64,000 nucleotides of DNA, taken from positions 6,144,001-6,208,000 of the forward strand of contig CM000151.3 of NCBI GenBank assembly GCA_000004695.1. Reading direction: 5' to 3'. Shown here piece after piece: positions 6,500-49,613 of this stretch; within the stretch, counting starts at the first letter, position 1, and each line of letters begins with the position of its first letter. The stretch is from Dictyostelium discoideum. Taxonomy: Eukaryota. Below the pieces are notes generated by a model. That model searched no databases. It was not told the origin of the DNA and was given only the letters and a program-made list of their open reading frames with translations. The position numbers and the translations under genes are program-made.

Positions 6500-6628
6500 T
6501 TTAATTAAATTAAATTATTTTATTTATAAATAAAAATTTTAAATCATTTGTATTAATTATAAAAAAAAAAAAAAAATAAAAAAATAATTATATATTTTAA
6601 TTTTATTATTTTATTTTATTTTTTTATT

Positions 6629-6960: not shown

Positions 6961-7007
<47 letters not shown>

Positions 7008-7464
7008 AATTATTATTATTATTTTAAAAAAAAAGTTGTTTAGATAATTTTTATTTTTATTTTTTTTTATTTTATTTTATTTTTTTACCTTCAATTTTTT
7101 GAATTCTATCATTTGTTAATTTATAACCTTTATTTAATAATTTTTCACTTTGATTTTTTTGAAATTTTGACCATTTTACTGAATCCCATTCAACATTTGG
7201 TGGTAATAACATTGCAACACATTTAAATGATGAATCGAATGAAACACATTCATTAAAGTCAATTAATTGTTCCATAAATCCTTCTTCCATTTCATATATA
7301 AAATGATCTTTATCTTCTTTTGAAAGTTCAAAAAATTGATAATTAAAGTATGGATCTTCTTTAAATGAATCTGTATTTATTTTTGAAACTTTCTCCATAT
7401 CCTCTCTTTTTATTATATATAATTCATCTTGATCTATATTATCTACACTATTTGCAAAACTCAT
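6629..7464 (-). CDS. GNAT-family N-acetyltransferase (228 aa), 2 exons
   Basis: Exons on the minus strand are 7464..7089 and 6939..6629. The intron 6940..7088 has a GTAAAA donor and an ATATAG acceptor. Exon 2 carries acetyl-CoA binding motif A (HIEHRKKGLASKLLNRL) and the motif YLKHGFE. Confidence 0.7.
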
Positions 7465-7505
7465 TTTCTATTTTATTATTCTATTATTTTAAAAAAATAT
7501 TTATT

Positions 7506-7553
<48 letters not shown>

Positions 7554-7789
7554 TTATTCTCAAAATATTCGCCAAACGGAAAAAGTTGACGGCAATGTCT
7601 CTAAAACAAAAACAAAAAAAAATTAATTTAAAAAAAAAAAAAAAATTAATTTTAAAAAAAAAAAAAAATCATACCCGATTGTGAAAATAAAAATAGAAAA
7701 AACAATTGAAAAAAAAAAAACAAAAAGAAATCTCTTTAATTTATTACCAAACTTCTTATTTTTTTTTTTTTTTTATTATTTTTTACTAA

Positions 7790-8000
7790 TTAATTTGATA
7801 TCAATATATCCTAATATTTCCATATTTTGGTCATTTATATTTAGAATTTGAAGTGAAGAAAAAGTATAATATTCTTTTATATTTGAAGCCATATATATTT
7901 TTAAATCAATTAATTGAACTAACTTTTTTTAATAATGATAATTGAGATTTTCTTTCAATTGAAAGATATTTAAGACTTTTTGGTAAAACTATATTTTTTC
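7790..8000 (-). pseudogene. FNIP-repeat gene fragment (3'-terminal remnant)
   Basis: About 210 bp match the 3' ends of the FNIP copies at 9366-9800 and 11890-12330 (e.g. taacttttttttaataa[tc]gataattgagattttc.ttcaattgaaag). It has an internal deletion and no ORF. Confidence 0.4.
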
Positions 8001-8048
8001 TACTTTTTTCTAGTTTTTTATTTAACTCTTTTTTTAAAAAATGAAATA

Positions 8049-8083
<35 letters not shown>

Positions 8084-8244
8084 CACCTTCACACGTTTTT
8101 TTTCTATTTACACCAAATCAAATAAAATAGTTTTTTCATTTTTTTTTTTCATTTTATTAATAAATATAAAAATAGAGTACTTAAAAAATAAACGAAATAA
8201 TAAAATATATAAAAAAAATGAATATGACAATTCTCTTTTTTTAA

Positions 8245-8275
<31 letters not shown>

Positions 8276-8384
8276 TCTATTTTTTTTTTTTTTTCATTTT
8301 CATTTTCATTTTCAATAAAACAAAAAAAAAAAAAAAAAAAGAATTAAACTTTTATTATTAAAAAAGAAATTAATTAAAAAATTA

Positions 8385-9237
<853 letters not shown>

Positions 9238-9365
9238 ATTTTAAAAAACTAAAATAAAATAATAATAATAAGTTATTTGTAAATATAATTAAAACTAAAA
9301 ACAACACTATTAAAAAAGATATTTTATTATTTATCTATTGGTTTGTTAAAATTAAAATTTTTATT

Positions 9366-10250
9366 TTTCATCAATAATAGTGGGATCAACATAACAAAAT
9401 GTTTTAATTTGTTTATCATTTACATTTAGATCTTTAAGTGAGTTAAAAATATAACCTTCCTTAACATTTCCAGCCATATATACTTTTAAATAAACTAGTT
9501 GTTTGAGATTGGTTGAAAAATCAATTAAAGATGAAAATCGTTTAGATTTACCAATTTTTAAACTTTTAAAAAATCAATTTCTTTATTGAATTTATTTCCA
9601 ATATAAAGAAATTCAATATTTTTTGGTATTCTAGGAAGTTTATTATTTAATTCTCTTGTGAAGCCCAAATTTTTTATTGTTTTTGGTATTTTTGTATTTG
9701 AACCACATTCTTCAATTGATAAAAATTTAATTGAAGATTTAACTTTTTTTAATAACGATAATTGAGATTTTCATTCAATTGAAAGAAATTCAAGAATATT
9801 GGGTAAAATTAGATTTTCTCCGATTTTAGTATGATGACCTAATCTTAAAATAATTAAATTATTTGGTAATGCATCATTATCAATACATTCTTTGAATCTA
9901 CTACCAAATTTTATTGAGTTGATTGTGTGGTAAATCACCTTTTGATATTATTAGGTTCTGATTAATTAATATTTCTTTAACTGAATATGGAATTATTCCG
10001 AATGGGATAAAAGCTCCCATTACTTTATCATTTATTTTAGTTTCATCATTTGAAATTACCAAAACTGTTAAATAATTTCATAATGGATATTCTCTTAATG
10101 AATTAAAATTATGTTTAGTTTTATTATGTGCAATATTAAATTTCCTTAAATGATAAAATATATATTTATTCCTTAAATTAACATTTTTCAAAACTTTAAA
10201 AAACAATTCATCATTTTCTAATTTAATTTCACTAAATCTATAAATAAATA
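9366..10250 (-). pseudogene. FNIP-repeat gene, 5'-truncated and frame-disrupted copy
   Basis: It is about 85% identical to the copy at 11892-12835. It lacks the start-codon region and has an extra 18-nt insertion near 9520-9540. The ORF track finds no ORF of 60 aa or more. Confidence 0.55.
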
Positions 10251-10976
10251 TTTAAAAATATACACTAATTTTTATCAATATGGTTTATTTAAAATTTTTA
10301 ATCCAAAAAAAAGAATAAAAAAAAAAAAATAATTATCAAATTTATTTTTAACTTAATTTGATTTTTTATAAAAAAAAAATAAAAAAAAAAAAAATTCCAT
10401 AATTGGAAAACAGGATAAAAATAAAAAAAAATTATATTTTTTTTTCTAATTATGGAAATTTATTTTTTCTTTTTAAATTACTTTTTTTATTTTTTTATCA
10501 ACATATCTTTGAAAATATGTCATTCTTTTTTTTATGTCATTTTGTTTATTTTTTGAGTTTTCTATTTATATACTAATCCATATCAAAAATAAATAAAATA
10601 AAATTATTGATAAAAAAAAAATTATTAATATAATTAAAAACAAGTTTTTTTTTATTTTTATTTTTTTTTTATTTTTTTTTTTTTTATTTTTTTATTTTTT
10701 TTTTTTTATTTTTTTATTTCACAAACATCTCAAAATCAAATATGACAATATAAATAATAATAGATATAAATCATTTACACAATAGTGGAAGTTTAATTGC
10801 AACTTTAAGAGGGTATAAATATGTTTTACTTGGGCGCACTGACAGTTTCCAATGATTATGTCATTTGAATTTTGAATTTTATATTCCAATCAATATGATT
10901 CAATAGCATCGTCATTGACTGGTCGGTTAATAATACAATCACTTCAATATCTTTCTAATCAAATACAACCACTATA

Positions 10977-11095
<119 letters not shown>

Positions 11096-11330
11096 GATTC
11101 ATTTGGCGAAAGTAAAGCAAGGAATTTTGATAAATCAAATCATGTGATTTCTTTATCATCAAGCATAATTAATTGTAGTCAAAGTTCAATCAATGCAGGT
11201 AATATTAATGTTTAACAAATAGATTTCGAGATGATTACAGCTCAACCACAATAACAACTACATCAATAACAGTGGTGATTTACGTTTCAAATCAATATTT
11301 AAAATGGTACCATTGAATTGACCAGACAGA

Positions 11331-11500
11331 CACCTCATCTAATAGTTGTTGTATTTGTGTAATGCAAAGTTCCAAACTTTTATTTGGTGAAACCAGATCC
11401 TATTCAAGTAAATGGTTACTTCAATACGATCAGGTTTCCCCAAATCGTAGTTAGGAACTTTATATTACACAAATACAACAACAACCACTACTAATACTCG
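11331..11500. repeat. ~30-bp imperfect inverted repeat (28/30 match) with a ~70-nt spacer, inside an ORF-less island of normal GC content
   Basis: AGTTGTTGTATTTGTGTAATGCAAAGTTCC (11346-11375) pairs with GGAACTTTATATTACACAAATACAACAAC (11456-11484). The island lies between the FNIP copies. Confidence 0.5.
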
Positions 11501-11806
11501 ACAACAAACAAAGAGTTTATCAAGTTTAAATTCAGTTGATGGAAATAGTATTTGTAGTGGTATTAGTTGAAAATAGTAGATAAAGTACTTCATAGTAATA
11601 GTTTAGGTGTTAGAGATAGTATTGGTAGTAGTAGTAGTTCAAGTGGATCAACAATTTTAAATAAAATCACCAGTTAAATTTTATGTAAATTGCCAAAAAT
11701 CAAATTCAATGACATTGTATATGATAATAATAAACTTAAATATTAATATAAATAATATTAATACATAAGTAAAAATTAAATAAAACTAGAATACTTCCCA
11801 AATTAA

Positions 11807-11845
<39 letters not shown>

Positions 11846-11891
11846 AATATTGAAAAGTTATTTAATTTTTAATTTTCTATTTTATTTATCT

Positions 11892-12835
11892 ATTGTTTTA
11901 TCAAAATTTTATTTTTCATTAACAATACTGGGATCAACATAACAAAATATTTTAATATCTTGATCATTTATGTTTAGAATTTTAAGAGAATTAAAAATAT
12001 AACCTTCTTTTACATTTTCAGTCATATATACTCTTAAATAAACTAGTTTTTTGAAAATCGTTTTGATCTACCAATTTTTAAAACTTTTAAATGTGATAAA
12101 TTTAAAAAATCAATTTCTTTATTGAATTTATTTCCAATATAAAGAAATTCAATATTTTTTGGTATTGTAGGAAGTTTATTATGAAACTCTCTAATGAAAG
12201 CCAAATTTTTAATTGTTTTTGGAATTCTAGTATTTGAATTACATTCTTCAATACACAAAAATTGTATTGAAGACGTAACTTGGTCTAATAATGGTAGTTG
12301 AAATTTTCTTTGAATTGTAAGAAATTTAAGATTTTTTGGTATAATTAAATTATTACTGATTTTGGTATTATGACCTAGTCCTATTTTAATTAATTTTTTT
12401 GGTAACATATCATTATCAATATATTCTTTGAATCTTTGATCGAATTTTATTGATTTGATAGAATCTGGTAAATCACCTTTTGAAATTATTAGATTTTGAT
12501 TAATTATTAATGATACTACAGAATTTGGAATTATTTTATTTGGAATAAAAGCACCCATTGCTTCATCATTTATTTTAGTTTCATCATTTGAAATTTTTAA
12601 AAATGTTAAATAATTTCTTAAAGGATATTCTAATAAAGAATCAAAACTATGTTTAGGATTATTATTTGCAATTTTAAATTTCCTTAAATAATAAAATATA
12701 TATTTATTCCTTAAATAAACATTTCTCCATACTTAAAAAAATAATTAATCATTTTCTAGTTTAATTTTACTAAATGTTTCTGTATCGACTATGAATCTTT
12801 TTAAATATTCATTAATTGATTTATCCATTGTTTTT
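11892..12835 (-). pseudogene. FNIP-repeat gene with a frameshift after codon ~27; a 171-aa internal ORF (12043..12558) remains
   Basis: It starts ATGGATAAATCAATTAATGAA at 12835, like the intact copy. There is a premature TAA after ...KLEND, and the C-terminus also runs into a stop. It is otherwise collinear with the intact gene at 13246..14193. Confidence 0.6.
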
Positions 12836-13245
12836 ATTTGGTAATTCAATTAAGAAATATTAAAAAAAAAAAAAAAAATTTTATTTTGAATAAGTTTTTT
12901 TTTACTGAATTTTTTTTATTAAAATAAAATAAAGAAAGAAAAATAAAGAAATAAAAAAAATTACAAATTTGGTAATAAAATCACCTTTTTTTTTTTTTTT
13001 GATCTATAAATCTTTTTTTATTTTTTTATTTTTACTATTTTTTATTAGATTTTATTCAAATAAAATAAATTATAAATTCTTTGGTTAAAAGATGTAATTT
13101 CGAATGACCCCTCATTTTTTTCTATTTAAAAATTTTTAAAAAAAAAGAAAATTAATATAATTGTTTGAAATTATAAAAAAAAAAAAAAAGATTTTTAAAT
13201 GACAGTTTGTGTATTTTTTATTGTTTATATTTATATTTACTTTTT

Positions 13246-14193
13246 TTAAATATAATTTTTAAGGTCCACAAAACCTTCAAAAATTTCTATTAATTGATCA
13301 TTAAAACATAAAATTTGAAGTGATGTAAAATTATAATGATATTCCAATAAATAAAATTCAGAGTATACTTTTAAATAAATTAGTTGTTTTAGTGAAAGAG
13401 CAATGTCAGATAAGGATTTAAATTTTTTCGATCTACCAATTTTTAAAATTTTTAAATGTTTTAAATCTAAAAAATCAATTTCTTTACTGAATTTATTTCC
13501 AATATGAAGGTATTCGATATTTGGTGGTATTATTGGAAGTTTATTATGAAATTTTGAAGTTAAACCTAAACTTTTAATTGTAGTTGGAATTTTTGTATCT
13601 GCATCACATTCATTAATACCTAAATATTCAATTGATGATGTAACTTGATCTAATAATGATAATTGTGATTTTCTTTCAATGGATAATGATTTTATACATT
13701 TTGGTAAAATAAAATCTTCATCAATTTTAGTATGATATCCCAACTTTAATTTAATTACATTTTTTGGTATCATATCATTTGAAATTAATTCTCTGAATCT
13801 TTTACCAAAAGCTAAGGTATGAATTGAATCTGGTAAATCTCCTTTTGATATTAATATATTTTGATTTATTATTAATAATCCAACAGAATTTGGAATTATT
13901 TTATTTGGAATTGTTGATCCAAAATCTATATCATTTTGTAATGTTTCGTCATTTGTAATTTTCAATCCAGTTAAATAATTTCTTAATGGATATTCTCTTA
14001 AACTCTCAAAATTATGTTTTATATTAAAATTTGCAATTTTAAAATTCCTTAAATGATAAAATATACATTTATTTCTTATAAAAACATTTCTCCAAACTTT
14101 AAAAAATAATTCTTCCTTTTCTAATTTAATTTTACTATTTATTTCATAATCAATTTCTAATATTAATGAAAAATTTTTACATAAAACATCCAT
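13246..14193 (-). CDS. FNIP-repeat-containing protein (315 aa), intact single exon
   Basis: Repeated ~22-aa units carry FNIP-type motifs (IPNSV, IPKNVIKL, IPTTIKSL, IPPNIEYL). This matches the Dictyostelium-expanded FNIP repeat family. Confidence 0.8.
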   Translation of the reverse strand: MDVLCKNFSLILEIDYEINSKIKLEKEELFFKVWRNVFIRNKCIFYHLRNFKIANFNIKHNFESLREYPLRNYLTGLKITNDETLQNDIDFGSTIPNKIIPNSVGLLIINQNILISKGDLPDSIHTLAFGKRFRELISNDMIPKNVIKLKLGYHTKIDEDFILPKCIKSLSIERKSQLSLLDQVTSSIEYLGINECDADTKIPTTIKSLGLTSKFHNKLPIIPPNIEYLHIGNKFSKEIDFLDLKHLKILKIGRSKKFKSLSDIALSLKQLIYLKVYSEFYLLEYHYNFTSLQILCFNDQLIEIFEGFVDLKNYI

Positions 14194-14411
14194 TTTTTTT
14201 TTATTATAATAAAATATTTATAAAAAAAAAAGAATAAAATTAAAAATAAAAGGAAAAAAAAAAACAAAAAAAGTAAATTATTAATAAATTAAGTAAAAAA
14301 AAAAAGTAAAAACTTAATTTATTAAAATGACGTTAAAAAAAAAAAAAAAGATCAAACATGGTAAAAAAAATAATCTATAGATCTTTTTTTTTTTTTTTTG
14401 ATTTAAAATTT

Positions 14412-17400
14412 TTAATTTTTTTTAATTTTATTTTTATTAAAATTTAATTTATTATTAGATTCTAATTCAAATAAAATTGATTTTGATCTTTCTAAGACCG
14501 AATTTGGTATACCCGCCATTTTTGCACAAAAAATACCATAAGATTTATTTGACATTCCAGGTACGATTTTATGAGTGAACAAGATTTCATCTTCATCCTC
14601 TTGAATTGCTAAACAATAACATTTTATATGAGGTGTTTCATCTAAATTTTTAGTTAGTTCATGATAATGAGTTGCAAAGAGAGTTCTACATCTGTTAACT
14701 TGATTAAGATATTCCACTACAGATTGAGCAATTGAAATACCATCCAAAGTACTTGTACCACGACCTACTTCATCCATAATTACGAAAGATCTATTAGTAG
14801 CCTTCTTTAGAATTGAAGCTGTTTCAACCATCTCAACCATAAATGTTGATTTATCATTTGAAAGATCATCTGAAGAACCCACTCTACTAAATATAGCATC
14901 AACAATACCGATTTTAGCATAAGAAGCAGGTACGAATGAACCCATTTGAGCCATTAAAATGATTAAAGCATTTTGACGTAAAAATGTACTCTTTCCACCC
15001 ATATTAGGACCTGTAATTAACCAAAGATTTGCATCATCAATACCTTTATTCAATTGTAAATCATTACCAATAAATTCAGTTGTTGAATTTTCAACTGTTG
15101 GATGTCTACCATCTTTAATATCTAAAATTAATCGATCATTATCATTATTATCATTATCAACAACAATATTATTATTATTGTTATTATTATTATTAACTAA
15201 AATTGGTTTAATATATCTTCTTTGTTTTGAAATTTTAGCTAAACTTGTTGAAATATCTAAATTTGCAATTACTGAACTAACTTGTTTAATTTCATTACTA
15301 TATTTACAAACTAAATCAACCAATACATAATAAAGTTGAATTTCATATTCTAAAACCTTTGAAGCCGCTCTATTAATTTCATCTTCTAATATGATTAAAT
15401 CACTTGATTTAAATCTCATTACAGAGAGTAGAGTTTGAATATGAATGAAATTCAAAGGTATTTTATCACGATCAGATGATGAGATTTCAATGTAATAACC
15501 AATGATTGAATTTTTATTTACTTTAAGTTTTGGTATCTTTAATTTGTTTCTATAGGTTTCTCTAAATTCATTGATTAAAGCATCACTATTTCTTGAGATT
15601 AATTTATATCTATCCAATTCTTTCGAATAACCTTCCTTAATGAAACCACCATCATTTACACTAATCGAAGGTGGTGAATCAATCAATGCAGCCGAAAGGT
15701 GGTTCAATAATGGTGTTAAATGGGTTTGTTGAATTTTCAATAATAATTGATTAATCGATTCAGTTTGCTCATTGATTTTCATAGTTAAAAGTTTTGATTG
15801 TAATGATTCTTTTAAATGGAAAATCGATTGTAATGTACTGCCAATGGTATGTAAATCTCTTGGTCCTGATTTATTAATTTTTAAACGTTGAATACATCTT
15901 TCAATATCTGAACCAGCATTTAAAAAACTTCTAACTTCATTTGTCAACTCCATATTATTATAAAAGAATTCCAATTGATTCAATCTTGAATTGATTTCTT
16001 TCAATTCTAAACTTGGTGATTGAATTCTTGAGAATAATAATCTACCACCTTGTGGTGTTATAGTTTTATCAATACTTTCTAATAAACTACCTTTCTTATC
16101 ACCTTGATATGTTTTTGTAATTTCTAATGATTGCATTGTTGAATAATCAATAAACATTGAATTATGTGAATCAATTCTTTTTGGTAAATTTAATGAAAAT
16201 AATGGATTACTACTATTATCATTATTATTGCCAATACCAATATTTGTTTTAATTATATAACTTAAAATTGAACCTGCACTATTTAATTCATCATTTGAAA
16301 ATTCATTTTCAAAATATTCATTATTAATTTCATTATTATTATTATTATTAAATGCTTCATTAAAAATTTTAAAAGTTTTCTTTTTATAATTAAAACTTTT
16401 TAAATCATTTTCCATTGAAACATTATATGGTTTTAATATTTTTGAAATTTGTTGATTATAATTTAATGATGCTGGTATTAATATTTCTTTTGGTTGAATT
16501 CTATTTAATTCTGATGATAGATTTTCTAATGTTGATGAAGATATAAAGAAATCACCTGTACTAATATCTAACCATGATATTGAAAATTGTGAACTTGCTG
16601 AAAATTTTGTATTACTAATATTATTACTAATATTATTATTATTATTACTATTACTATTACTATTATTATTATTACTACTATCATCAGCAACCATTAAATA
16701 ATCATTAAGTTCAAATCCATTAGGTAAGATTGAACATAGATAATTACTATTGGATGTTAAATATCTATCTTCATATAAAGTACCAGGTGTAATGATTCTA
16801 ACGATTTGTCTATTTATAATTCTTCTACCTTCTTTTGCTTCATTAGAATCCTCAACTTGATCACAAATTGCTACTGATTTACCAAGTTTAACTAATTTAG
16901 CAATATGAATCTCTGCTGAATGTGATGGTACTCCACACATTGGTATCTCTCTATTTCTATTTTTACCTTGTTTTCTTGATGTTAACTTTTTTGGATTTTA
17001 ATTGATATATAAATATATGTATTAATAATTAATTTATAAAATCATGTAAATTGATTATTGATAATTATATACATACTGTTATACCTAATAAATTTGAAGC
17101 AATTTTTGCATCTTCATCAAACATTTCATAAAAATCGCCTAATCTAAAGAAAAGTATTTCATTTGGGTATTTCTTTTTAAATCCACTATATTGTTCCATT
17201 ACTTTTGTTGTTCCTTTAGCACTACTTAATCTTTTTCCTATTTTATCTTCTTCTTCTTCTTCCTCATCATCTTCATCCTCTTCTTCTATTGTATTATGAT
17301 TATCATCTTTATATTTTAGTTGTTTTGATGATTTGCTTAAATTTTTCCCAATTTTATCTTCTTTTTCTTCTTTTTCTTTTAATGTATTATTAACAATATT

Positions 17401-17961: not shown

Positions 17962-17985
17962 GTGGGATTCGAACCAGCGATGTTA
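17962..17985 (-). promoter_or_regulatory. external B box (GGTTCGAATCC) ~35 bp downstream of tRNA-Val
   Basis: The plus strand reads gggattcgaacc; its reverse complement is GGTTCGAATCCC. Dictyostelium tRNA genes commonly carry a downstream extra B box. Confidence 0.45.
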
Positions 17986-18013
17986 TAAATCAAGCACAAA
18001 AAAATGTTAGTTG

Positions 18014-18087
18014 TATTCAGAGCGGGAATCGAACCCACGACCTAATCCGTGTTAAGGATTCGTGATAACCGACTACACCATCCGAAC
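18014..18087 (-). tRNA. tRNA-Val (anticodon AAC)
   Basis: The reverse complement folds as a cloverleaf: acceptor GTTCGGA/TCTGAAT with two G-U pairs, D-arm GTGTAGTCGGTTATCAC, anticodon stem AATCC/GGATT with loop TTAACAC, and T-arm GTGGGTTCGATTCCCGC. Confidence 0.8.
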
Positions 18088-31376: not shown

Positions 31377-32771
31377 ACACCCTCGGTTGGAACACAAAAA
31401 TCTAATTTATCATCATCACTGAAAGGAGTTCCAATTTCACCTACTCCAACATCGCCATTACCAACACAAATTTTATCACCATCATCTCTATCATCATCTT
31501 CATCATCGACATTTTCATCATCATCATCATCAAAATGTACCAAAATATTTGTTGGAGGCATATCATGGAAGGTAACTAATTTTTTTTTTTTTTTTTTTTT
31601 CCCAATTAATTATTCCATTTTTTTTTTTTTTTTTTTTTTAATTTTGGTAGGTTTAATTAAAAAAAAAAAAAAAAAGTGCTAATTTCTTTTTTTTTTTTTT
31701 TTTTAAATAAATAAATAAAAAAATATAGGCAGATGAGAATACATTAAAAACTTATTTTTTACAATTTGGAAATGTTTTAGAATGTAAAATTATAATGGAC
31801 TATAATACAAATAAATCAAAAGGATATGGTTTCATCACTTTTGAGAATGAAGATTCAATTGAAAAAGTTAGGACTTCAAATCTACTATTCATGGGTAAAA
31901 ATGTAAAATTTCTTTTTAATAGAAACTTTTATTATTTTTTTAAATTTCCTAATTTTTTGGGAAATAATATTATTTTACTAATTTTCCACTTTTTTTTTTT
32001 TTTTTCTTTTTTTTTTAATAAAGATGAATATCGGAGATCCAGTTAGAAAACATAATGGTAGTATTGGTTCAAATAATTTATTTAATGGTGTTTCAATGAG
32101 TAATGGTTATATTGGTAATGGTGGTATTATGAATGGAAATAATGGTATTAATTATAATGGTCATCAACAAAAGTTACATCATCATCATCCACATGGTCAA
32201 ATTATTTATGATCCACAACAATCACCATCACAAACACAACAACAACAACTTCACCACCTTCATCATCATGGACCTAATAGTGGTGGTAATTCACCGATTT
32301 CCACATCTCTTCCATCTTCGACATCTTCAACTCCAAATATAATTTCTGCTCATCATTATGGAAATTCAAATGGAAATTTAAATAAAGTAATGTCATCATT
32401 TAGTTCATTTAATATTAGTGATAATTCTTCAATAAATAACAATAATAATAATAATGGTAATGGTAATGAAAGACAAAGTGCAAATAATACTACTATTGGT
32501 GGTGGTGGTGGAAATAATCACAATGGTGTGAATAGTGAAAATGGTAGAATACTTTCAAGAAATAACCATAACCATAATAATAGCAATCATATTAGTCATA
32601 GTCATAATAATCATAACCATAATCATACTCATCATAATCATAGCAATGTTGGGATTGGTGGTGGTGGTAGTGGTAGTGTTAGTGGGAACATTCACAATCC
32701 AAATTTATTAATTGAACAGCAACAGCAACAACAACAACATCTACAGTTACAGCAACAACAGCAACAACAGC

Positions 32772-32811
<40 letters not shown>

Positions 32812-33208
32812 TCCATATACTCAACAACATATGATGAATGGTGGTATTCAATATTATTATCCTAGTCCATATGGTGAGCCATTTTATCAAACTCATCCTC
32901 ATCACCCATCTTATCAAATTTCATACCAAAATGGGCCCCCAATGAATACTCATCATCCTCATATCCCACATCACCCACACCATCCTCATCAACTTCCACA
33001 ACATCCATCACATCAGCATATGCATCATCCACAACACCCACATCATCCATCACATCATAATGGTAATGATATAATTAATGGAGTTGGTGGTGGTGGAGTT
33101 TCAACCAATGTTGGATTAAGTGGTAGTGGTGGAATTGATAATGAAATTGACTTAATTCAACAACAACAGCAACAACAACAACATCAACAACATCAACAAT
33201 CACATCAG

Positions 33209-33239
<31 letters not shown>

Positions 33240-33610
33240 CAATACTTCAACATTCAACTTATTTTAATACATCACCACAACCATATATCGGAGGACATCA
33301 TCAATATTATTCTTCAATGTCTCAAGCACCACCATCAATTCCACCACCACATTCATTATCTGGTCAAAATAATCAACCTCAAATTGGCTTTGATTCTTAT
33401 TCTCACCATCATCATCATCATCATTATCAACCATCATCACTAGCTAAAGAAAATGTTAAAACTAACAACAATAGTAGTAGTGGTGGTAGTAGTAGTGGTA
33501 ACAACACCAATAATAACAATAGTAATGCTGGTGGTGTCACAAGTAGTAACAGCAATAGTAATACTAAAAACAACCTAAGCAACAGTGGGAATCAAATTTA
33601 CTTTCGTTAA
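31233..33610 (+). CDS. single-RRM RNA-binding protein (hnRNP/Musashi/DAZ-like RRM) with a long His/Gln/Asn-rich tail, 699 aa, 3 exons
   Basis: Exons are 31233..31571, 31729..31902 and 32024..33610. The RRM spans introns 1 and 2: RNP2 KIFVGGISWK | ADENTLKTYFLQFGNVLECKIIMDYNTNKSKGYGFITFENEDSIEKV (RNP1 KGYGFITF) ...LLFMGKN | MNIGDPVRKHN. The last segment resembles the DAZ/Boule post-RRM motif GKKLKLGPAIRKQ. The N-terminus is poly-Thr/Ser. Confidence 0.75.
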
Positions 33611-37165: not shown

Positions 37166-37980
37166 CTTAAATCCATCAAAATATACAAGATCTGTCAGCA
37201 TATCCAAAATCAAGTAAGTAAAAATAATAATAATTTTATAATTATAAATAAAAAATAAAAAATAATAAATAATAAAATATAATAAATAGAATAGATTTGG
37301 ATGTCATTTTTTTTTGATACTATATATTGATTGTTGATAAATAATACTAAATATTTAAATGGTAGATATAACAATGTCATTTTCACAATATTAAAATATA
37401 ATTGTTTTAAATATTCTTCTTCAAATTACTCATTAAATTTACAAGTTACGAATAAAGAGAAGAAGAAGAAGAAGAGGAGGATGAATAAAAATAAAAAATA
37501 ATAATAAGAAGAAGAAGCAGAATAAGAGGATATGACACTTGGGAAATTTCGAATATATTATCCAATAGTTGCAATTATTATATTATTAGATAATTTATTC
37601 TATATTACTCAATTGTTCTATCTTCCTATACTCATCCTTCTTCTTATTATTATTTTTATTTTTCATCATCTTCTTTTTTTCTTTTTCATTTTCTTGTCCA
37701 CTTGGAAATTTGAAGAGAAAAGAAGAATATTTATAAACAGTTCCGATTTTTCTCACTTAAATTGTCTAATATTGTTACTGGTTTTAGTGAATCTATTAAA
37801 GAATGTGTTATTGGAAGTTATCAAAACACCAGAATCATTTAGTATTATGAAAAACAAATCATTTAATCTTCACAATGAATGTTATTGTTACAATAGTAAT
37901 TCAAAGTCAATGTTTGCTTGTGAAAAAAGTAAAAATAATATCCAATAGTATTTTTTTTAATTGTTCATTTTCTATTATTA

Positions 37981-38054
<74 letters not shown>

Positions 38055-38223
38055 ATTATTATTATTTTTAAAAATTACATAACAATTTTTATTATTTATT
38101 TAAAATTTACTTATTGAATATTTGTACAACAAAAATGGTAAAAGATCATCAATCCCAGTTTCCTTCAATTCATCAAAATTGAACTATGTAATATATGGTG
38201 AATATAGGTATTAAAATTGAAGA

Positions 38224-38479
38224 TGTAATAAAGTTACTCTATAAAATTAATAGATATTAAATATGCATATTACATTACTAATTATAGTTGACACACATTT
38301 AAATAATATAATAATAATACTGTCAACTCATTATAAATAATATAAATACTAAAGAATAATTTTATTAACAATATTGAATATCATAAATATAAACTAATAT
38401 TAAATAAAGATAACAAAGTATTATTCAATTATATAATTATTAATTATATATATTTATAAAGCTAACAAGCTTTATTACA
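38224..38479 (+). repeat. 5' LTR (256 bp) of a tRNA-targeted Ty3/gypsy-type element (DGLT-A-like)
   Basis: It begins TGTAATAAAG and ends CTTTATTACA, forming terminal inverted repeats. It is about 99% identical to 40576..40813 plus 43282..43299. A putative primer-binding site TTTGGCGACATCG follows it. Confidence 0.8.
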
Positions 38480-38623
38480 TTTGGCGACATCGTCTTTCAA
38501 AAAAAAAAAAAAAAAAAAAAAATATATTATAAATATAAAGTTATCAAATTATTCAATCAATTAAAATTTTACATTAGATTAAATTTAATTTAATAAAATC
38601 TTAAAAAAAAAAAAAAAAAAAAA

Positions 38624-38668
<45 letters not shown>

Positions 38669-38671
<3 letters not shown>

Positions 38672-39946
38672 AGTAATAATGAAAACGTAATTTTTTCGGG
38701 TGATGGAAAAGGTTTATCATTTCGTAAATTCAAACACTTACTCTTATTAATTCATGGCGAGGAAATATCGAAAGCTGATATTATTAGAAAACTAAGAAAC
38801 AATGCATTGGAATATGCCGCAACATTGGATACAGACTTAACAGCAATGGAGATAATTGAAGATCTTAAAGATGCTTTTGGTATTGGTGATAGTGATGATT
38901 TAACAGAATTAACAAAGTTGGGAGAATATAAATACAATACATTAGATATATTAATTGGTAAATTTCTATCAAAATGTTCAGCAGTTGATATTTCAGAAAA
39001 GTTTAAAATACAATTGTTTTATTCAGCTGTTGGTACTGAATTGGGTATTGAAATTACAAAATGTGCACCAAAATCATTAAAAAGAGCAATAGATATTGCA
39101 AAGTCTTGTGAAGATGGTTCAATTCGTATCAAAGGTAGATCAATGTACACTGGTCAATTAGTTGCAAAGACGTTGCAAGAATTTGGTAATCAAAGATATC
39201 TAGGTTCGGGTTCTGGTTATTCTGCAACATCCCCTCAATATGTTACATCTCAAAACGAACAACAATCAATTGAATCTGAAGAAATTTCAACACCAATTTT
39301 TAAAAATCAATATTATAATCGATCACCACAAATGTCACCACAATCATCCCCTTATAAAGCACCACAAAATCAAGTAAATTCAATCACAAAATTTTGTAAA
39401 TATTGCAAAAAGAAAGGTCATGTAATTCAAGAGTGTTGGTCAAAAGATAAAAATAATAATAACAATTACAATAATAGAACTAATTCAATTACAATGGTCA
39501 ATAATAGTACAATTAATTCAATTGGAATAGATAGTATGAATGCAGCTTTATTAATAAATAATAAAAATGTTAGAGGTTTGATTGATACTGGTTCATCACT
39601 TACTATTGTTTGGGAAAGTATTGCTAAAAAGTTAAAATTAAAGATTGAAAATAAACAATATTCTGTTAAATCAGCATCAAATAATGAAATCAAAATCATT
39701 GGAATAAGTAACACAACAATTAAATTAGGTAAAGCATTGGCTAGAGTTAAAGTTAATGTTGTTAAAGATAATGATACATCAATTGATTGTATATTTGGCA
39801 TTGATACAATAATTGGATTAAATTTAGTCATTGATTTTAAAGAAATGATCATTAAGAATCTTGAATTCAATGTTGGTACCAAATTAATATCTAAAGAAAC
39901 CCAACCATGTATACAAACTATATTTAAAACAGTATCTGATTATTCA

Positions 39947-39977
<31 letters not shown>

Positions 39978-40438
39978 CATCAAAATCAGAATTATTAACA
40001 GATACTGATCATTTAATTGAAAATTTTAATTCTCATCATATACTATCAATCAAATCGTGTCCAACTATTGAAGAACAACTACCAATAGATTACGATATTC
40101 CAGAATTCTTATTCCAAGAACCAATAGATTCACCAATAACATCAAATTTACCATTAAAATCAATATCATTAAATCAAACAGAGAATTCAATAATTAAATC
40201 ACAAATAACCTCAATTCAACCATTAATAAGAAATCCATGTACAAATTTATCAAGATTAGATTTTGCTCATAATTTCGCCCAAATTGTAAATAATAACCTC
40301 AAACGTCCTTGTCTCATTAAGGATAATCTTGGTAAAGACCAATTATCACAAATTAATAAAAAAAGTTTCTCGTTCAAATATTCAAGTAGGAGATTATGTC
40401 TATTTACAATCCACTGTTGGTCCAGTAAAGCTCAATAA
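38669..40438 (+). CDS. retroelement Gag-protease polyprotein (589 aa); reverse transcriptase and RNase H are absent
   Basis: A CCHC zinc knuckle reads CKYCKKKGHVIQEC. A retropepsin active site reads LIDTGSSLTIV. No RT or RNase H motifs are found downstream. Confidence 0.7.
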
Positions 40439-40580
40439 ATCTTGGGAAGGTCTTTTCAAAGTACATGAGAGAGTTAGCGATTTAAAATTCAAATTAGTAT
40501 TGGATAATATTAAAAATCATGATGTGTTTTATATTAAAAGATTGAAAAATTTTTTTCAACTAAAAGGGGGGGATATGTAA
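40329..40580 (+). CDS. integrase C-terminal (SH3-like/GPY-F) fragment in a different frame, a remnant of the pol 3' end
   Basis: VGDYVYLQSTVGPVKLNKSWEGLFKVHERVSDLKFKLVLDNIKNHDVFYIKRLK fits the gypsy integrase C-terminal pattern (VGD.V.L...KL...W.GPF.V...V...AY.L.LP...H.VFHVS.LK). The deletion junction lies around 40280-40340. Confidence 0.55.
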   Translation: MVKTNYHKLIKKVSRSNIQVGDYVYLQSTVGPVKLNKSWEGLFKVHERVSDLKFKLVLDNIKNHDVFYIKRLKNFFQLKGGDM

Positions 40581-40813
40581 TAAAGTTACTCTATAAAATT
40601 AATAGATATTAAATATGCATATTACATTACTAATTATAGTTGACACACATTTAAATAATATAATAATAATACTGTCAACTCATTATAAATAATATAAATA
40701 CTAAAGAATAATTTTATTAACAATATTGAATATCATAAATATAAACTAATATTAAATAAAGATAACAAAGTATTATTCAATTATATAATTATTAATTATA
40801 TATATTTATAAAG

Positions 40814-41145
40814 TTTTTTTTTTTTTTTTTGAATTGGATAACGCAATTATTATTTGCTTCTCCTTGAGATGCTAGATCTCATTTTATTTTTTTTTTTTTT
40901 TTACAGGGTCTTTTTGATTAAAACATCTTTTTTGTCCAAACTTTTTTCTAAATCTTTTTTTATTTTATCGTCTGGTTCGTGATTGATGTTTATGACGTAT
41001 TTGAATTGTTTTTTTTTTTTTAATTGAGTTTTATCCACAATTTCGCTTATTTTTTGTAGGCATTTGTGTTGCTTAATATTTGTGGTGTTGTTTGTGATTT
41101 TCATTTTATTTTCTTTCTATCTTTTTTATTTTTCTGATTAACTTG

Positions 41146-41217
<72 letters not shown>

Positions 41218-42940
41218 TATTAAGAAAAAGTAACTGAAGTGAATTATTGTATTTTTTTGAGATGTTTTAGGAAAGTTTCTAATTGCGGGGTGTTGAATGA
41301 ATGATTTTGTGACAACCCCTTGTCTTGTTTTTATCAATTGGTGCGTGGTGTGTTATTTTGTTTTTATATTGTTGATTTATTGAGTAAATTTTATTTGTTT
41401 TTATATTTGTTTCAGTTAGAAGTGCTGCGTCCAAGCTTGTTGTTGTCTAAAACGGTGTTTATTATGCTGGCAGATTGGATGGTGTTGGATCCTTGGACGT
41501 TCCAAACACATATTCTTATTGTGTTTTTCTTTATAGTTTTATTTGGGGTAGATTTTTATCTACCTTTTGAAGTTTCTGGTTTATTTTGTCTTCTAACTGA
41601 TCTTTACTTTGTTCGTTGTGTTGTTGGTCTTGTGTGTTTGTGGGGTTTTTTGATTTATTGATTTGTTTTAGAATTTCCTTGTTGAAGTTGTCTATATCTT
41701 CATCCATTTTTGTTTTTATGCTTTTTTGTCCATATTCACCCAATTTTGGTTTGACTGGTGTTTTGTTGGTCTTGTTTGTTTTGTCTTGTTGTTTCTTTTT
41801 TGGTGTGTTTAACAATTTACTTGGTGAATCGATAATTTTCGATGGTGTACCATAGGTTGGGCTGAAACTCATGATATGTTTTATTGGAGAGGAGAAGAAC
41901 CATTGATTTGAAGGGATTGAAAGTGGGAATTCTATTTTTCTTATTGCATCAGTGTTTGGGCTGGTGAAGTCGAAGATATCATTTACCTCTCTAAGTTTTT
42001 CTTCCGTTGTTAGTCTCTTTGTTTCGCCGTGTTGTTTTATTGGTGTATTGTATGGAGATGGTGGTTCAATAGGTTTTTCTGATTTTGTTTTAATTTCTTG
42101 ATTTTTTATCGATTGGGTATTGATCTCATTCTCTATTCTTGTTAGTTCATCTACGTTTTCTAGTGATGCATCTATTACCTTTTGAGCTGTATCATCTAGG
42201 GCCATAAATGTTTTATCATTAGATGAGGAGGTGATTGGTGGGATAATGATTGTTCTTTTTCCTTGTTTTGGTATTTGTTCTGATGTAGATTTTGGTTGTT
42301 GTTCATCTGATTGTTTTTTATTTTTGTTTTCTTCTTGATTTTCTGGTAATGAGGTTTGATCTCTCCATCCTTTGTTGGAGTGACCAATTAATGTTAGATT
42401 GTCTAGTTCAATGATAGTGTCAAATTCTTCTACGACTCTTTTCACTGTTTTGATAATTAGAGTTTCGCCTTTAATTTCTGATTTAATTAGTTTACATCCT
42501 TCATTTTCTATTACCCATTCTATTTCTGTGAGTGATTTATACCAATCAAAATCTGTATACATATTTTTTGGTCTTATAGTGGTTATAAATTGTCCTTTTA
42601 ATTCTGCATCAAACATATTTACAAAATAGATTACTGTACTAATACTGTCTGTGAGAATTTTGAATGTATTATTACTTTTGATTAAAACATCTTTTTTGTC
42701 CAAACTTTTTTCTAAATCTTTTTTTATTTTATCGTCTGGTTCGTGATTGATGTTTATGACGTATTTGAATTGTTTTTTTTTTAATTGAGTTTTATCCACA
42801 ATTTCGCTTATTTTTTGTAGGCATTTGTGTTGCTTAATATTTGTGGTGTTGTTTGTGATTTTCATTTTATTTTCTTTCTATTTTTTATATTTTTCTTTAA
42901 AAAGTTAAAAATCTGGAAATTTTCTGATTAACTTGGTTCC

Positions 42941-42996
<56 letters not shown>

Positions 42997-43266
42997 TCTT
43001 TTTTATATGAAAAATGAAATAATCAAAAAAAGAGATTGTTGTTGTTGTTTGTTTTTTTTCGATCTGATTATTTTTTGCTTTTTTTTGAAAATTTTGCTAC
43101 GCAAAATTCTCAAAACGAAACAAATAATAAATTACAATAAAGTAAAAAGATGGCTTTTTAAGATAGTTTATTTATTTATTTATTTGTTTTTTAAGTCTTT
43201 TTTATATGAAAAATGAAATAATCAAAAAAAGAGATTGTTGTTGTTGTTTGTTTTTTTTCGATCTCC
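40814..43266 (-). mobile_element. TRE5-A-like non-LTR retrotransposon of short TRE5-A.2 type: ORF1 retained, ORF2 absent, ~2.45 kb, inserted into the 3' LTR of the LTR element
   Basis: A 15-bp target-site duplication TATATATTTATAAAG lies at 40799-40813 and 43267-43281. The minus-strand 3' end is oligo(A) (plus T17 at 40814-40830). The 5' end carries two copies of an A-module-like ~200-bp unit (42995-43194, 43195-43266). The junction is 47 bp upstream of tRNA-Arg, the distance characteristic of TRE5. Confidence 0.7.
41531..42865 (-). CDS. TRE5-A ORF1-like protein (444 aa)
   Basis: A long minus-strand ORF inside the element. Its first 65 codons are duplicated at 40901..41104. It has no catalytic motifs, which is expected for ORF1. 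Confidence 0.6.
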   Translation of the reverse strand: MKITNNTTNIKQHKCLQKISEIVDKTQLKKKQFKYVININHEPDDKIKKDLEKSLDKKDVLIKSNNTFKILTDSISTVIYFVNMFDAELKGQFITTIRPKNMYTDFDWYKSLTEIEWVIENEGCKLIKSEIKGETLIIKTVKRVVEEFDTIIELDNLTLIGHSNKGWRDQTSLPENQEENKNKKQSDEQQPKSTSEQIPKQGKRTIIIPPITSSSNDKTFMALDDTAQKVIDASLENVDELTRIENEINTQSIKNQEIKTKSEKPIEPPSPYNTPIKQHGETKRLTTEEKLREVNDIFDFTSPNTDAIRKIEFPLSIPSNQWFFSSPIKHIMSFSPTYGTPSKIIDSPSKLLNTPKKKQQDKTNKTNKTPVKPKLGEYGQKSIKTKMDEDIDNFNKEILKQINKSKNPTNTQDQQHNEQSKDQLEDKINQKLQKVDKNLPQIKL

Positions 43267-43313
43267 TATATATTTATAAAGCTAACAAGCTTTATTACAA
43301 AGAATTCATCAAA

Positions 43314-43386
43314 GCCCGTTTAGCAAAGTTGGAATTGCGGCAGCCTTCTAAGCTGCAGGTCGTGGGATCGAGACCCACAATGGGTG
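43314..43386 (+). tRNA. tRNA-Arg (anticodon UCU)
   Basis: Cloverleaf: acceptor GCCCGTT/AATGGGT, D-arm GCAA-AGTTGGAA-TTGC, anticodon stem GCAGC/GCTGC with loop CTTCTAA, and T-arm GTGGGATCGAGACCCAC. There is no intron. Confidence 0.8.
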
Positions 43387-43415: not shown

Positions 43416-43469
43416 AGGTTCGATTCCTAGTAAAAAAAATATAAAAAAAATATAAAAAAGGTTCGATTC
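43416..43469 (+). promoter_or_regulatory. two tandem external B boxes (GGTTCGATTCC) 30 and 70 bp downstream of tRNA-Arg
   Basis: ggttcgattcctag occurs at 43416-43429 and again at 43456-43469. Each is preceded by aaaatataaaaaa. Confidence 0.5.
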
Positions 43470-43950
43470 CTAGTCCTCTAATTCCAACAATTACACCACC
43501 AATTAATTATTAATTACCTAATCTAAAATAACATACCATTTTAAATTCTCAAAAAGTAAAAAACCTAAAATAAATAAATAAAAATAACATACTAATTGTA
43601 TACTACAATAGTTTATTTATAAAAAAAAAAAAATCCTAGTCTTCTAAAATGAAATTGAAAAAAAACAAATGATTAAGAAATTAACTTGAAAAGTATATTA
43701 TTCCAGAATCAATACTTACAAATAGTTTCTCCTTTGTAATTTATTAATTGAATTGGTGGAACTGATTTATTTTTTTAATTTATTTATAAACAAAAATAAA
43801 AGCCACACTTTATTTTTAAATTAAAATTCCTTATTTGAAAATTAAAATTAAAAGGAATAACTTCTTTACATTTTAAAATTCTCACCTTTAAAAAAAAAAA
43901 ATAATAAACAATAAAAAAAATATATCTTATAAATTATTTTATTTTAAATA

Positions 43951-47274: not shown

Positions 47275-49613
47275 TTACATAATTTGACAATCCATTGAAT
47301 TATTTGAACCAGCTCTGGCAACATCAGCTTGTTTTAATATTTTTTTAACATTTTTATGAGCGACATCTAAAGGACATAAACCATCACGAGCTCTAGCTTT
47401 TATATCGGCATTATGATTGAGCAAACATTCGACAACACTGACATGACCTTCGGAGGAAGCTTTATGAAGTGGAGTTGAACCATTTCTATCGGTGACTTGA
47501 GTGTTTGCTTTGTATTTGAGTAATAATTCAACGATATCAACATGACCTCTATGACAAGCTGTATAGAGTGGAGTTGCACCACATCTCATACCCGATCTAA
47601 TTTTCGCTTCGACATTTGCACGATTCTCCAATAAAAGATTGACGATTTCAGTGTAACCCTCTTGTGCTGATATATAGAGTGGTGTTGCACCATGGTTCTT
47701 TGTGGTACCTTCAATATTTGCCTTGTACTCTAATAAACACTCTACCACTTTATAATGACCTCTATGGGCTGCTGAATAGAGTGGAGTGATACCATTCTTA
47801 TTGATAGCTTCCATGTTGGCATTATGTTCCAATAGACAACGTACCACCTCTGTATGACCATTGTGAGCCGCTGAATTCAATGGAGTAACGCCATTGATAT
47901 TGGTTGCCTCAATGTTTGCACCATGAGTAATCAATAGCTCCACCACTCTAACATGACCTTTTTGTGCGGCCGTATGTAAAGGTGTTGAACCATTCTTATT
48001 TTTACATTCAATCTTTGCATTTGCCAATATCAAAGATTCGGCTGCTTCAACATGACCTTTTCCGCATGCCATATGTAATGCTGTGAAGCCTGAACGTGTA
48101 TTGGTTTCAATGTCTGCACCATTTCTTAACAAACATTCAATCACTGAACGATGTCCTTTATATGATGCTTTTAATAAAAATTTATTTCTCTTTTTTAATG
48201 ATATACCATTTGATTCACTAATTATTGGTGATGATGTATTACCAACATCAATATCTTCCATTTCTAAATCAACTTCATTATTATTATCATTATTATTATT
48301 ATTATTATTACGACGTTGTTGTTGATGATGATGATGATGGTGGTGATGATGATGATTATTTTGTTGTTCTTGTTCTTGTTCTTGCTCTTGTTGTTCATTA
48401 TTATTGTTATTATTTTCATCTTCCTCTTCTTCTTCACTATCTTCTTCATTTTCTTCATTGTTATTAATATTTACATTTTGTTGTGGTTGTGGTGGTGGTT
48501 GTTGTGGTTGTTGTGGGTAGTCATCTAAAACTTGATTTATTTGAATTATTGGAACATTTATATTAATATTTGTATTATTATTAGTATTATTAACATTATT
48601 TAAATGTAATAATGCTGGTGAAACAACATTTGATCTTTTGCTGTCAAATGATCTTTGTAAAATTTGGTCGTGACCATTTTCACATGCCCATAGTAATTTT
48701 AAATCTGAATCTTTTTCTCCAAATTCTCTTAATTTTAATAAATTTTTTATAACTGTTCCTTTCCAAAACTAAAAATAATAAATAAATAAAAAAAATATAT
48801 TAATATTTTCATTTTCAAAAAAGGTGCTTTTATAAATAATAATAATAATATAATATTTACAATTTCATTTTTTGCACTTTCACCAAAAATAGATTTATTT
48901 AAATTATTCCAAAGTTGTTCATCATCAACCATAGATTTCCAATATTTAGAGACTGTACATGTTTTTGAAAGGTCTACTGCGTCTGAAAATGATAAAATGT
49001 GCATTCTAATTTCAATTGGTAAATCAAAAAAGTTAAAACCACTATCATTATTATTGTTGTTGTTATTATTATTAATATTATTATTGTTACTTATATATTC
49101 TTCATCTCCGCTATCTGTATTATTAATATTATTACTATTATTATTATTTGAATATCCATCATAACAATCATCATATTCTTCACTTATGCTACTATCCTCA
49201 TTATCTGCAATACAAAGTTTCTCTATATTTAAAATATTATTATCATCTCCATTACTATTATTAAGACTACTACTTAAAATATTACCAGAACTATTGTTGT
49301 TATTATTGTTATTATTACTATTATTACTACTACTGCTATTCTTTTTTATACTAAGAAAATTTGAAAATTTTGATGTAAAATTTGAAAAAGTTGGTGATGT
49401 TGGAGAGCTAGTTGATTTCTTTTTACTATTTGAAAAATTATTACTTGTTAAACGAGAATAAAGACGATTACTACTACTATTATTATTATTATTATTGTTA
49501 TTACTATTTGTATTGCTTAGGCCAATTCTAGGTGGAGTAGCTAAAATTTCAACTGGAATGGATGGTGATGATGGTGATGAAGAAGATGAAGGTGGGCTTA
49601 TCGAATCTCTCAT
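47275..49613 (-). CDS. F-box and ankyrin-repeat protein, 748 aa, 2 exons
   Basis: Exons on the minus strand are 49613..48861 and 48768..47275. The intron 48769..48860 has a GTAAAT donor and a TTTTTAG acceptor. The F-box reads DLPIEIRMHILSFSDAVDLSKTCTVSKYWKSMV. There are at least eight ANK repeats (G.TPLH.AA..GH..VV..LL) and an internal His10 run. Confidence 0.75.

Follow-up and report, generated by a model that had tools for sequence, protein, structure and literature searches.

Successive tRNA-targeted integrations at one tRNA-Arg(UCU) gene of Dictyostelium discoideum, and a reference copy of TRE5-A that is probably a collapsed tandem

How did two retroelements come to lie one inside the other directly upstream of a single tRNA gene, and does the reference sequence render them as they are? 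The question arises at ArgUCU-3, a tRNA-Arg(UCU) gene of Dictyostelium discoideum AX4, within a stretch of 64,000 nucleotides of chromosome 2 (contig CM000151.3, positions 6,144,001 to 6,208,000; the window). A first-pass annotation of this DNA had described a long terminal repeat (LTR) element whose 3' LTR is interrupted by a TRE5-A-like element, and had taken the LTR element to be the older of the two. Several elements that target tRNA genes can accumulate at one gene, and "TRE-TRE tandems" are reported to form "without integrating into each other" (PMC5391098). The best explanation overall, and in our view a highly probable one, is a succession of integrations directed to ArgUCU-3 by the RNA polymerase III (Pol III) complex, of which the reference probably shows a collapsed tandem. 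TRE5-A.2, formerly DRE, is a non-autonomous, L1-like non-LTR retrotransposon, and solo LTRs of the LTR element DGLT-A were formerly known as H3R.

The order of the two insertions is legible at the junctions. When the 5' LTR (38224-38479) is aligned with 40576-40813 plus 43282-43299, the 256 bp are rebuilt at 100% identity and without gaps, with a 15-bp overlap, and the 3' LTR is indeed split at 40813/43267. The 15 bp, TATATATTTATAAAG, occur three times in the 64 kb, at 38447-38461 in the intact 5' LTR and, as two identical copies, at 40799-40813 and 43267-43281, when none is expected (100 shuffles); no further base can be added to the duplication, since the adjoining bases differ both to the left (t versus c) and to the right (t versus c). 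DGLT-A inserted first, because the 15 duplicated bases are LTR sequence and are contiguous in the intact 5' LTR, which shows the target uninterrupted. The core reading, DGLT-A first and TRE5-A into its LTR second, is supported, with no contrary evidence, and all coordinates of the first-pass annotation hold.

Sites free of DGLT-A were sought in orthologous regions from five other assemblies, anchored on the neighbouring amidase gene (full-gene protein search); the flanking open reading frames (ORFs) at 32024-33610 and 47275-48261 were unusable as anchors, exact look-up having given no record, and the 373-aa amidase exon matched 1.2-kb read contigs alone. In two wild isolates of the D. discoideum clade (loci L018 and L022) the DNA upstream of tRNA-Arg is element-free and holds a single AAGA. 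The empty sites read ...aaaattgAAGAttacatcaaa/tRNA (in L018, ...ataggtattaaaattgAAGAttacatcaaa/tRNA), and the filled site in the window reads ...ataggtattaaaattgAAGA(DGLT-A)AAGAattcatcaaa/tRNA; because the empty sites hold one AAGA, the target-site duplication of DGLT-A is 4 bp. In D. citrinum (L019) there is no element upstream of the orthologous tRNA, in a flank too diverged for base-by-base reading. A long (ATT)n microsatellite lies at 37975-38065, ~160 bp upstream of the DGLT-A insertion, and is probably the reason why BLAST failed to align this flank to the empty sites of the wild isolates. In D. cf. discoideum (GCA_054859235.1), a different Ty3/gypsy element is found 11 bp upstream of the orthologous tRNA-Arg (L021, 12960-18993); it is 6,034 bp long, its two 300-bp LTRs match each other at 100%, and its ORFs (1,116 and 391 aa) comprise gag, protease, reverse transcriptase (RT), RNase H and integrase. 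This element represents an independent hit on the same tRNA gene and may be active. We considered it as a full-length progenitor of DGLT-A and rejected it, its gag-protease being only 25% identical, its LTR a different one and its position -11, not -14.

The outer element belongs to the Ty3/gypsy family DGLT-A: its internal deletion makes it a non-autonomous member, not a non-member. The annotation had proposed this identity from the distance to tRNA-Arg, and the LTR does end at 43299, leaving a 14-bp spacer (43300-43313) before the tRNA start at 43314; the published range for DGLT-A is 13-33 bp upstream of the mature tRNA sequence (PMC5006619). In sequence and in position, 2 bp from the left LTR, the primer-binding site of this copy, TGGCGACATCGTCTTTC, is exactly that of D. 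discoideum DGLT-A as published (Spaller et al. 2016, PMC5006619); the DGLT-A copies at L001 and L017 contain the site as well. The window copy also has the polypurine tract upstream of the right LTR that is listed as a DGLT-A feature (PMC5006619). Its LTRs end in TGTAAT...ATTACA (TG...CA type). The CX2CX4HX4C knuckle, CKYCKKKGHVIQEC, can be read directly in the 589-aa ORF, for which Pfam returns Asp_protease_2 (6.6e-11), gag-asp_proteas and a weak zinc knuckle. A further ORF carries an integrase remnant that matches SH3_Tf2-1 at E = 3.7e-5, below the gathering score, and aligns weakly to the integrase C-terminus of the L021 element; the LTR adjoins it directly, with no chromodomain. Pfam detected no RT, RNase H, integrase core (rve) or Chromo match in the DGLT-A ORFs.

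The window copy differs from the 5,054-bp DGLT-A consensus in its length of 2,608 bp, in the deletion of the RT, RNase H and integrase core (the breakpoint lies before ~40244, where an integrase-like "FAHN" region starts), in a frameshift at 40358 and in an LTR of 256 bp, against 265 bp in the consensus; it does not have the complete gag-protease-RT-RNase H-integrase capacity of the autonomous consensus. None of the ~20 D. discoideum copies of DGLT-A is full length (PMC5006619). The 2.6-kb derivative is present at at least three different tRNA genes (L001 7565-10192, L017 7583-10172 and window 38224-40813), which points to a non-autonomous DGLT-A subfamily mobilised in trans; no autonomous reference copy is known. 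The L001 copy lies 28 bp upstream of a tRNA-Val, with an identical pair of 268-bp LTRs, 94% identical to those of the window, and is flanked by a 4-bp duplication of its own, ACGG; at L017 the left LTR is missing its start, and at L007 an LTR fragment of DGLT-A is found 13 bp from a tRNA. In the L017 and L001 copies the gag-protease fused to the integrase tail is intact, at 636-642 aa, and relative to these ORFs an additional A (+1) at 40358 frameshifts and shortens that of the window. This frameshift is real, since it is shared by the sister strain described below.

The nested element (40814-43266; 2,453 bp) lies on the - strand, which is why it reads as T-rich on the + strand. Read on its own strand, it comprises 1.36 copies of the 199-bp A-module, a B-module, ORF1, a second B-module, a short remnant of the C-module and oligo(A). 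As the annotation had placed it, its 5' end, at 43266, is 47 bp from tRNA-Arg (43267-43313), in head-to-head orientation; for TRE5-A the optimum is 47 +/- 3 bp, in the orientation that turns the 5' end towards the tRNA (PMC5391098), and TRE5-A copies lie head-to-head with a tRNA at 42-50 bp in 7 of 7 other loci. With 12 other TRE5-A copies the nested element is collinear at 96-98%. Compared with full-length TRE5-A.1 copies (L003, L004 and L020), which have a 1,047-aa, RT-containing ORF2, it is missing ORF2 (~3.1 kb, at element positions 1979/1980) and ~70 bp between B and C (at 2355/2356); TRE5-A.2 is defined by the absence of ORF2 and a 72-bp BC deletion (Siol et al. 2011, PMC3159450). The nested element, which the annotation had called TRE5-A-like, belongs to the TRE5-A.2 type: it has the same AB-ORF1-BC organisation with oligo(A), a 444-aa ORF1, the same losses and the same head-to-head position at 47 bp, and its 15-bp duplication compares with 14-15 bp in other copies. 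It differs from other TRE5-A.2 copies in mixing A.1 and A.2 bases behind an A.1-type 5' end, in which it is unique among the copies examined, and in that its target was the LTR of a retroelement, not native upstream DNA. The mixed diagnostic bases touch the purity of the subtype, not family membership.

Two direct repeats mark the B-module duplication (40912-41018 with 42676-42782, 100%; 41009-41135 with 42770-42896, 98%). The A-module repeat (42968-43065 with 43167-43264) has a spacing of 199 bp, and the 199-bp unit is reiterated in other loci. Some TRE5-A.2 copies begin, at the 5' end, with arrays of it, of ~8 units at L002 (5225-6710) and L008 (5214-6706) and ~20 at L007 (2627-6706), as read from a long-read assembly and possibly an assembly effect, as against 1.36 in the window. 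Of the GG at the 5' end of the nested element, one or both G are probably non-templated additions; the start of other A.1 copies is GAGATCG, and extra nucleotides at TRE5-A 5' junctions have been reported (PMC5391098). The published TRE5-A ORF1 primer Rep-109 matches exactly at 42393-42421. A search of the window for primer Rep-108, allowing <=3 mismatches, gave no match. Read directly, however, the printed Rep-108 (PMC4559204) is one A short relative to the B-module sequence GTCATAAACATCAATCACGAACCAGAC, at 40962-40988 and 42726-42752, which looks like a misprint and not like evidence against TRE5-A; since the B-module is duplicated, Rep-108 has two binding sites per element. Because no Pfam family matched ORF1, the TRE5-A identity rests on the Rep-109 match and the family copies. 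Table 1 lists the features of the locus.

Table 1. Features of the ArgUCU-3 locus and the second tRNA gene (positions within the window)
Feature	Position	Strand	Basis
tRNA-Val(AAC), ValAAC-10, second tRNA gene of the window	18013-18087	-	ARAGORN, Rfam
DGLT-A duplication AAGA, left copy	38220-38223	+	Sequence and empty sites
DGLT-A 5' LTR, 256 bp, TGTAATAAAG...CTTTATTACA, 10-bp terminal inverted repeat	38224-38479	+	Alignment
DGLT-A primer-binding site TGGCGACATCGTCTTTC, 2 bp past left LTR	38482-38498	+	Exact match, unique in the window
gag-protease ORF, 589 aa, DDB_G0276009 / XP_643380.1	38669-40438	+	Exact look-up, "hypothetical protein"
Integrase C-terminal remnant, SH3-like, GPY/F-type motif WEGLFKV, 83-aa ORF in another frame	40329-40580	+	Pfam
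Polypurine tract AAAAGGGGGGGA, 2 bp before 3' LTR	40562-40573	+	Sequence; same context in L001, L017
Left piece of 3' LTR (LTR positions 1-238), ending in the distal copy of the TRE5-A duplication (15 bp, 40799-40813)	40576-40813	+	
Oligo(A) tail of nested element, 17 T on + strand	40814-40830	-	Sequence; identical junction in L020
C-module remnant, 3'-terminal part only	40831-40911	-	Comparison with A.1 copies
3' B-module, duplicate of 5' B-module, with long A run	40912-41229	-	Repeats; BLAST to A.1 B-modules
Stretch across ORF2-deletion junction (41288/41287), many single-base doublings	41207-41332	-	Alignment with other copies
ORF1, 444 aa, DDB_G0276011 / XP_643381.1	41531-42865	-	Exact look-up, "hypothetical protein"
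5' B-module, holds ORF1 start codon	42655-42993	-	Repeats, BLAST; PMC3159450
A-module (plus-strand promoter), ~1.36 copies: full 199-bp unit 43066-43264, partial 42994-43065	42994-43264	-	
5' end of nested element, GG before AGATCG	43265-43266	-	Junction comparison
15-bp TRE5-A duplication TATATATTTATAAAG, tRNA-proximal copy, LTR positions 224-238	43267-43281	+	
3' LTR, right piece, final 18 bp, ...CTTTATTACA	43282-43299	+	
DGLT-A duplication AAGA, right copy	43300-43303	+	Sequence and empty sites
tRNA-Arg(UCU), ArgUCU-3, target gene	43314-43386	+	ARAGORN; Rfam tRNA, 59.2 bits
Two external B boxes GGTTCGATTCC, 3' of tRNA-Arg	43417-43427, 43460-43470	+	Motif search

The history of the locus begins with a step that the window itself documents, the integration of a 2.6-kb DGLT-A derivative 14 bp upstream of ArgUCU-3 with duplication of AAGA. 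According to published work, DGLT-A is targeted through Tfc4, a subunit of TFIIIC, to which its RNase H domain and the N-terminal domain of its integrase bind (PMC6101501). Since the derivative has no RT, RNase H or integrase core, its cDNA would have been made and inserted by the proteins of an autonomous DGLT-A. In the second step, likewise documented, TRE5-A.2 entered by target-primed reverse transcription, the hallmarks of which at the nested element are the perfect 15-bp duplication and the extra, presumably non-templated G at the 5' end. A nick in the + strand at AAAG^CTAA, 32 bp upstream of the tRNA, would provide the 3' OH that primes cDNA synthesis on the oligo(A) tail, and a cut of the other strand 15 bp farther upstream, at -47, would yield the 15-bp duplication and the head-to-head orientation. 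As the DNA from -15 to -270 was already LTR, any TRE5-A directed to -47 was bound to interrupt the 3' LTR. The targeting of TRE5-A has been attributed to binding of the ORF1 protein to TFIIIB (PMC5911963), and according to published work the ORF2 protein is supplied in trans by TRE5-A.1; with neither element having its own enzymes, both would have been mobilised in trans.

The two-insertion history implied by the annotation is correct as to order and probably incomplete as to number. The orthologous locus of a sister strain (L016, L020), from a de novo assembly of Nanopore and Illumina reads (GCA_054883475.1, PRJNA1300491; probably AX2-214, judging from PMC12745789), has no substitution relative to the window in 2,591 bp of DGLT-A, and ~20 kb of flanks differ almost solely by run lengths. 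L016, and L020 on the reverse strand, read LTR / TATATATTTATAAAG / T17-TRE5-A.2 (2,385 bp) / TATATATTTATAAAG / T12-TRE5-A.1 (5,642 bp, with ORF2) / TATATATTTATAAAG, the third copy of the duplication being followed by the LTR's final 18 bp, 14 bp and the tRNA; the middle junction, between A.2 and A.1, is ...gtttgtttttttcc/TATATATTTATAAAG/tttttttttttt. The sister strain records at least three targeted events at this tRNA gene, and its A.1 element landed at the very same nucleotides. A third step, seen in the sister strain and presumed for AX4, would accordingly be the insertion of a full-length TRE5-A.1 at the same two nick positions, giving LTR / duplication / A.2 / duplication / A.1 / duplication / LTR end / tRNA.

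The single element of the reference is a mosaic of the two members of this tandem. Its 5' junction (...cgatctcc) is that of the sister strain's A.1, not of its A.2 (...tttttttcc), and its 3' junction (T17) and deletion junctions are those of A.2. In element positions, its diagnostic bases are of A.1 type at 1-385 and 884-1282, and of A.2 type at 656-844, at 1472-1816 and at most of the informative 3' sites; more than 20 substitution sites separate it from the distal A.2 of the sister strain, and at almost all of these it departs in the direction of A.1. No such mixing is seen in nine A.2 and three A.1 long-read copies, apart from an A.1-type base at 385 in the A.2 of L003. Moreover, the stretch at 41207-41332 differs from all 13 other TRE5-A copies examined (aligned with four A.2 copies and A.1), with doubled bases such as GGTTG for GGTG and AATTAGAAACTTTCC for AATAGAACTTCC; these ~125 bp look like low-quality Sanger sequence, of the kind found in the tail of a poor read. 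The ORF1 protein of the window was found by exact look-up in AX4 records alone. We infer that the 2,453-bp element is probably a Sanger-assembly collapse of an A.2/A.1 tandem rather than one physical element: both copies would have fed reads into the assembly where they are alike, and the region private to A.2 would have been thinly covered and of low quality. Three considerations weigh against a collapse. AX4 may have a true single hybrid, formed by unequal recombination and patchy mismatch repair; the comparison strain is not AX4, and the probable AX2-214 split from the AX3/AX4 laboratory line decades ago; and a Nanopore assembly with short-read polishing could in principle homogenise repeats, but copy-specific variants and the A.1/A.2 distinction persist in the long-read assembly.

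The hybrid is the main rival and the first of the alternatives to be weighed. The reference would then be accurate, AX4 carrying a TRE5-A produced by unequal recombination of A.1 with A.2 in the 5' 2 kb that they share; the event would have removed ORF2 together with the middle junction, and patchy repair of the heteroduplex would have left alternating A.1 and A.2 blocks. An A.1 5' junction together with an A.2 3' junction is just what a crossover between direct repeats predicts, the 444-aa ORF1 of the window is intact, and the two strains would have had separate laboratory histories. A single crossover, however, leaves one switch, and there are at least three (A.1, A.2, A.1, A.2). Mosaics are absent among the other copies (0 of 12), the doubled-base indels of 41207-41332 and two more private differences resemble sequencing error, and the neighbouring DGLT-A is without substitutions between the strains. 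On balance we regard the recombinant as unlikely.

A simpler history of two events, in which the A.2 of the window is faithful and the A.1 of the sister strain is a later, strain-specific insertion, appears very improbable. In its favour, laboratory strains have active TRE5-A, de novo TRE5-A^bsr integrations are on record at ArgUCU-3 (PMC5391098) and tandems form readily; yet this history predicts that the window element equals the distal A.2 of the sister strain, when the two differ by the substitutions described, and it is contradicted by the A.1-type 5' junction and the A.1-type blocks. That there is no nested insertion at all, the T-rich segment and the 15-mer arising from chance similarity or rearrangement in a very AT-rich genome, where short AT-rich repeats and low-complexity families are common, is already refuted by the exact reconstruction of the 256-bp 5' LTR with the 15-mer as the overlap, by the confinement of a 15-mer expected zero times to three places, and by an insert that is a complete, family-typical element ending in oligo(A).

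The target gene is the one catalogued for AX4: its chromosome 2 coordinates, 6187314-6187386, and the 25.3 kb that separate it from ValAAC-10 agree with Table S2 of PMC5391098. The two large ORFs of the locus are likewise identical to AX4 proteins of chromosome 2. Rfam found two tRNAs and no further RNA family in the window. De novo TRE5-A^bsr integrations were counted 13, 0 and 65 times at ArgUCU-3 in three libraries, and 0, 23 and 1 times at ValAAC-10 (PMC5391098); by these experiments, ArgUCU-3 remains usable as a target. A BLAST search of the whole window returned no TRE5-A or DGLT-A sequence besides the pair at ArgUCU-3, and none around ValAAC-10, where TRE3 and other families of transposable elements were not searched. 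External B boxes, which have been reported for social amoebae (PMC5911963), gave four matches in the window as against 0 expected. They (GGTTCGANTCC) lie 3' of both tRNA genes; the tRNA-Arg pair sits within a duplicated 15-mer, ggttcgattcctagt, and the tRNA-Val box is at 17965-17975 (- strand), 38 bp beyond the gene. Those near ArgUCU-3 are, from their motif, putative TFIIIC-binding sites of the targeted Pol III unit.

The return of TRE5-A to the same nucleotides may extend beyond ArgUCU-3. The duplication is identical at every junction in each tandem: three copies at the sister-strain locus, three of GATTAATCACCAAT at L003 and five of GTTTTGTAATT(T/A)AA at L004. The L003 tandem (6395-14900) consists of an A.2 followed by an A.1, and that of L004 (759-10170) of four elements with five copies of the duplication. 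At ArgUCU-3 the re-use holds even with foreign LTR sequence as the DNA at -47. Exact re-use of the site across TRE5-A tandems appears general, and we raise as a tentative possibility that repeated insertions at one tRNA gene use the same first- and second-strand nicks, each time regenerating the identical duplication. In the later literature on these elements, a body that does not include the founding papers, we found no statement of an identical 15-bp duplication in each round.

Most of what the locus displays has precedents. TRE-TRE tandems (Spaller et al. 2017, PMC5391098) resemble the arrangement in the sister strain, where the later TRE5-A lies between the tRNA and the earlier element, which it left uninterrupted; they differ in that here the earlier occupant nearest to the tRNA was an LTR element extending over -47, so that the first TRE5-A entered it. 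Where the LTR element came first, a TRE5-A is expected to end up within a DGLT-A LTR. Ty3 of Saccharomyces cerevisiae, like DGLT-A, is a Ty3/gypsy element guided by Pol III factors, inserting ~15 bp before the mature tRNA, a few bp at most from the Pol III start site; in contrast to DGLT-A, which is reported to bind Tfc4 (PMC6101501), the Ty3 integrase binds TFIIIB. The host lineages differ, and the likeness of Ty3 and DGLT-A is therefore one of convergent evolution. The biology of the locus is already known, since both integration preferences have been published, as have TRE tandems and repeated hits on a single tRNA gene, and in this respect it adds nothing to the publications of the Winckler and Glöckner laboratories. 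There is also a practical caveat, in that the AX4 TRE5-A at chr2:~6.1848-6.1873 Mb is apparently a composite of two tandem elements; the models of DDB_G0276011 and its neighbours, counts of transposable elements and the mapping of element-derived and junction reads should for that reason be checked against long-read assemblies.

ArgUCU-3 is nevertheless a textbook example of two convergently evolved targeting systems at one tRNA gene, each at its characteristic distance and with the order of insertion readable. The nucleotide-exact re-use of the site is quantifiable, and can be used in models of how the TRE5-A endonuclease is placed by the Pol III complex. If such re-use is general, the cleavage positions would be set to the nucleotide, gene by gene, by the geometry of TFIIIB and TFIIIC on the tRNA gene and not by local sequence. 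A corollary would be that TRE arrays are systematically under-represented in the AX4 reference through collapse, and arrays with identical duplications in long-read assemblies would serve both as a record of insertion order and as a molecular ruler.

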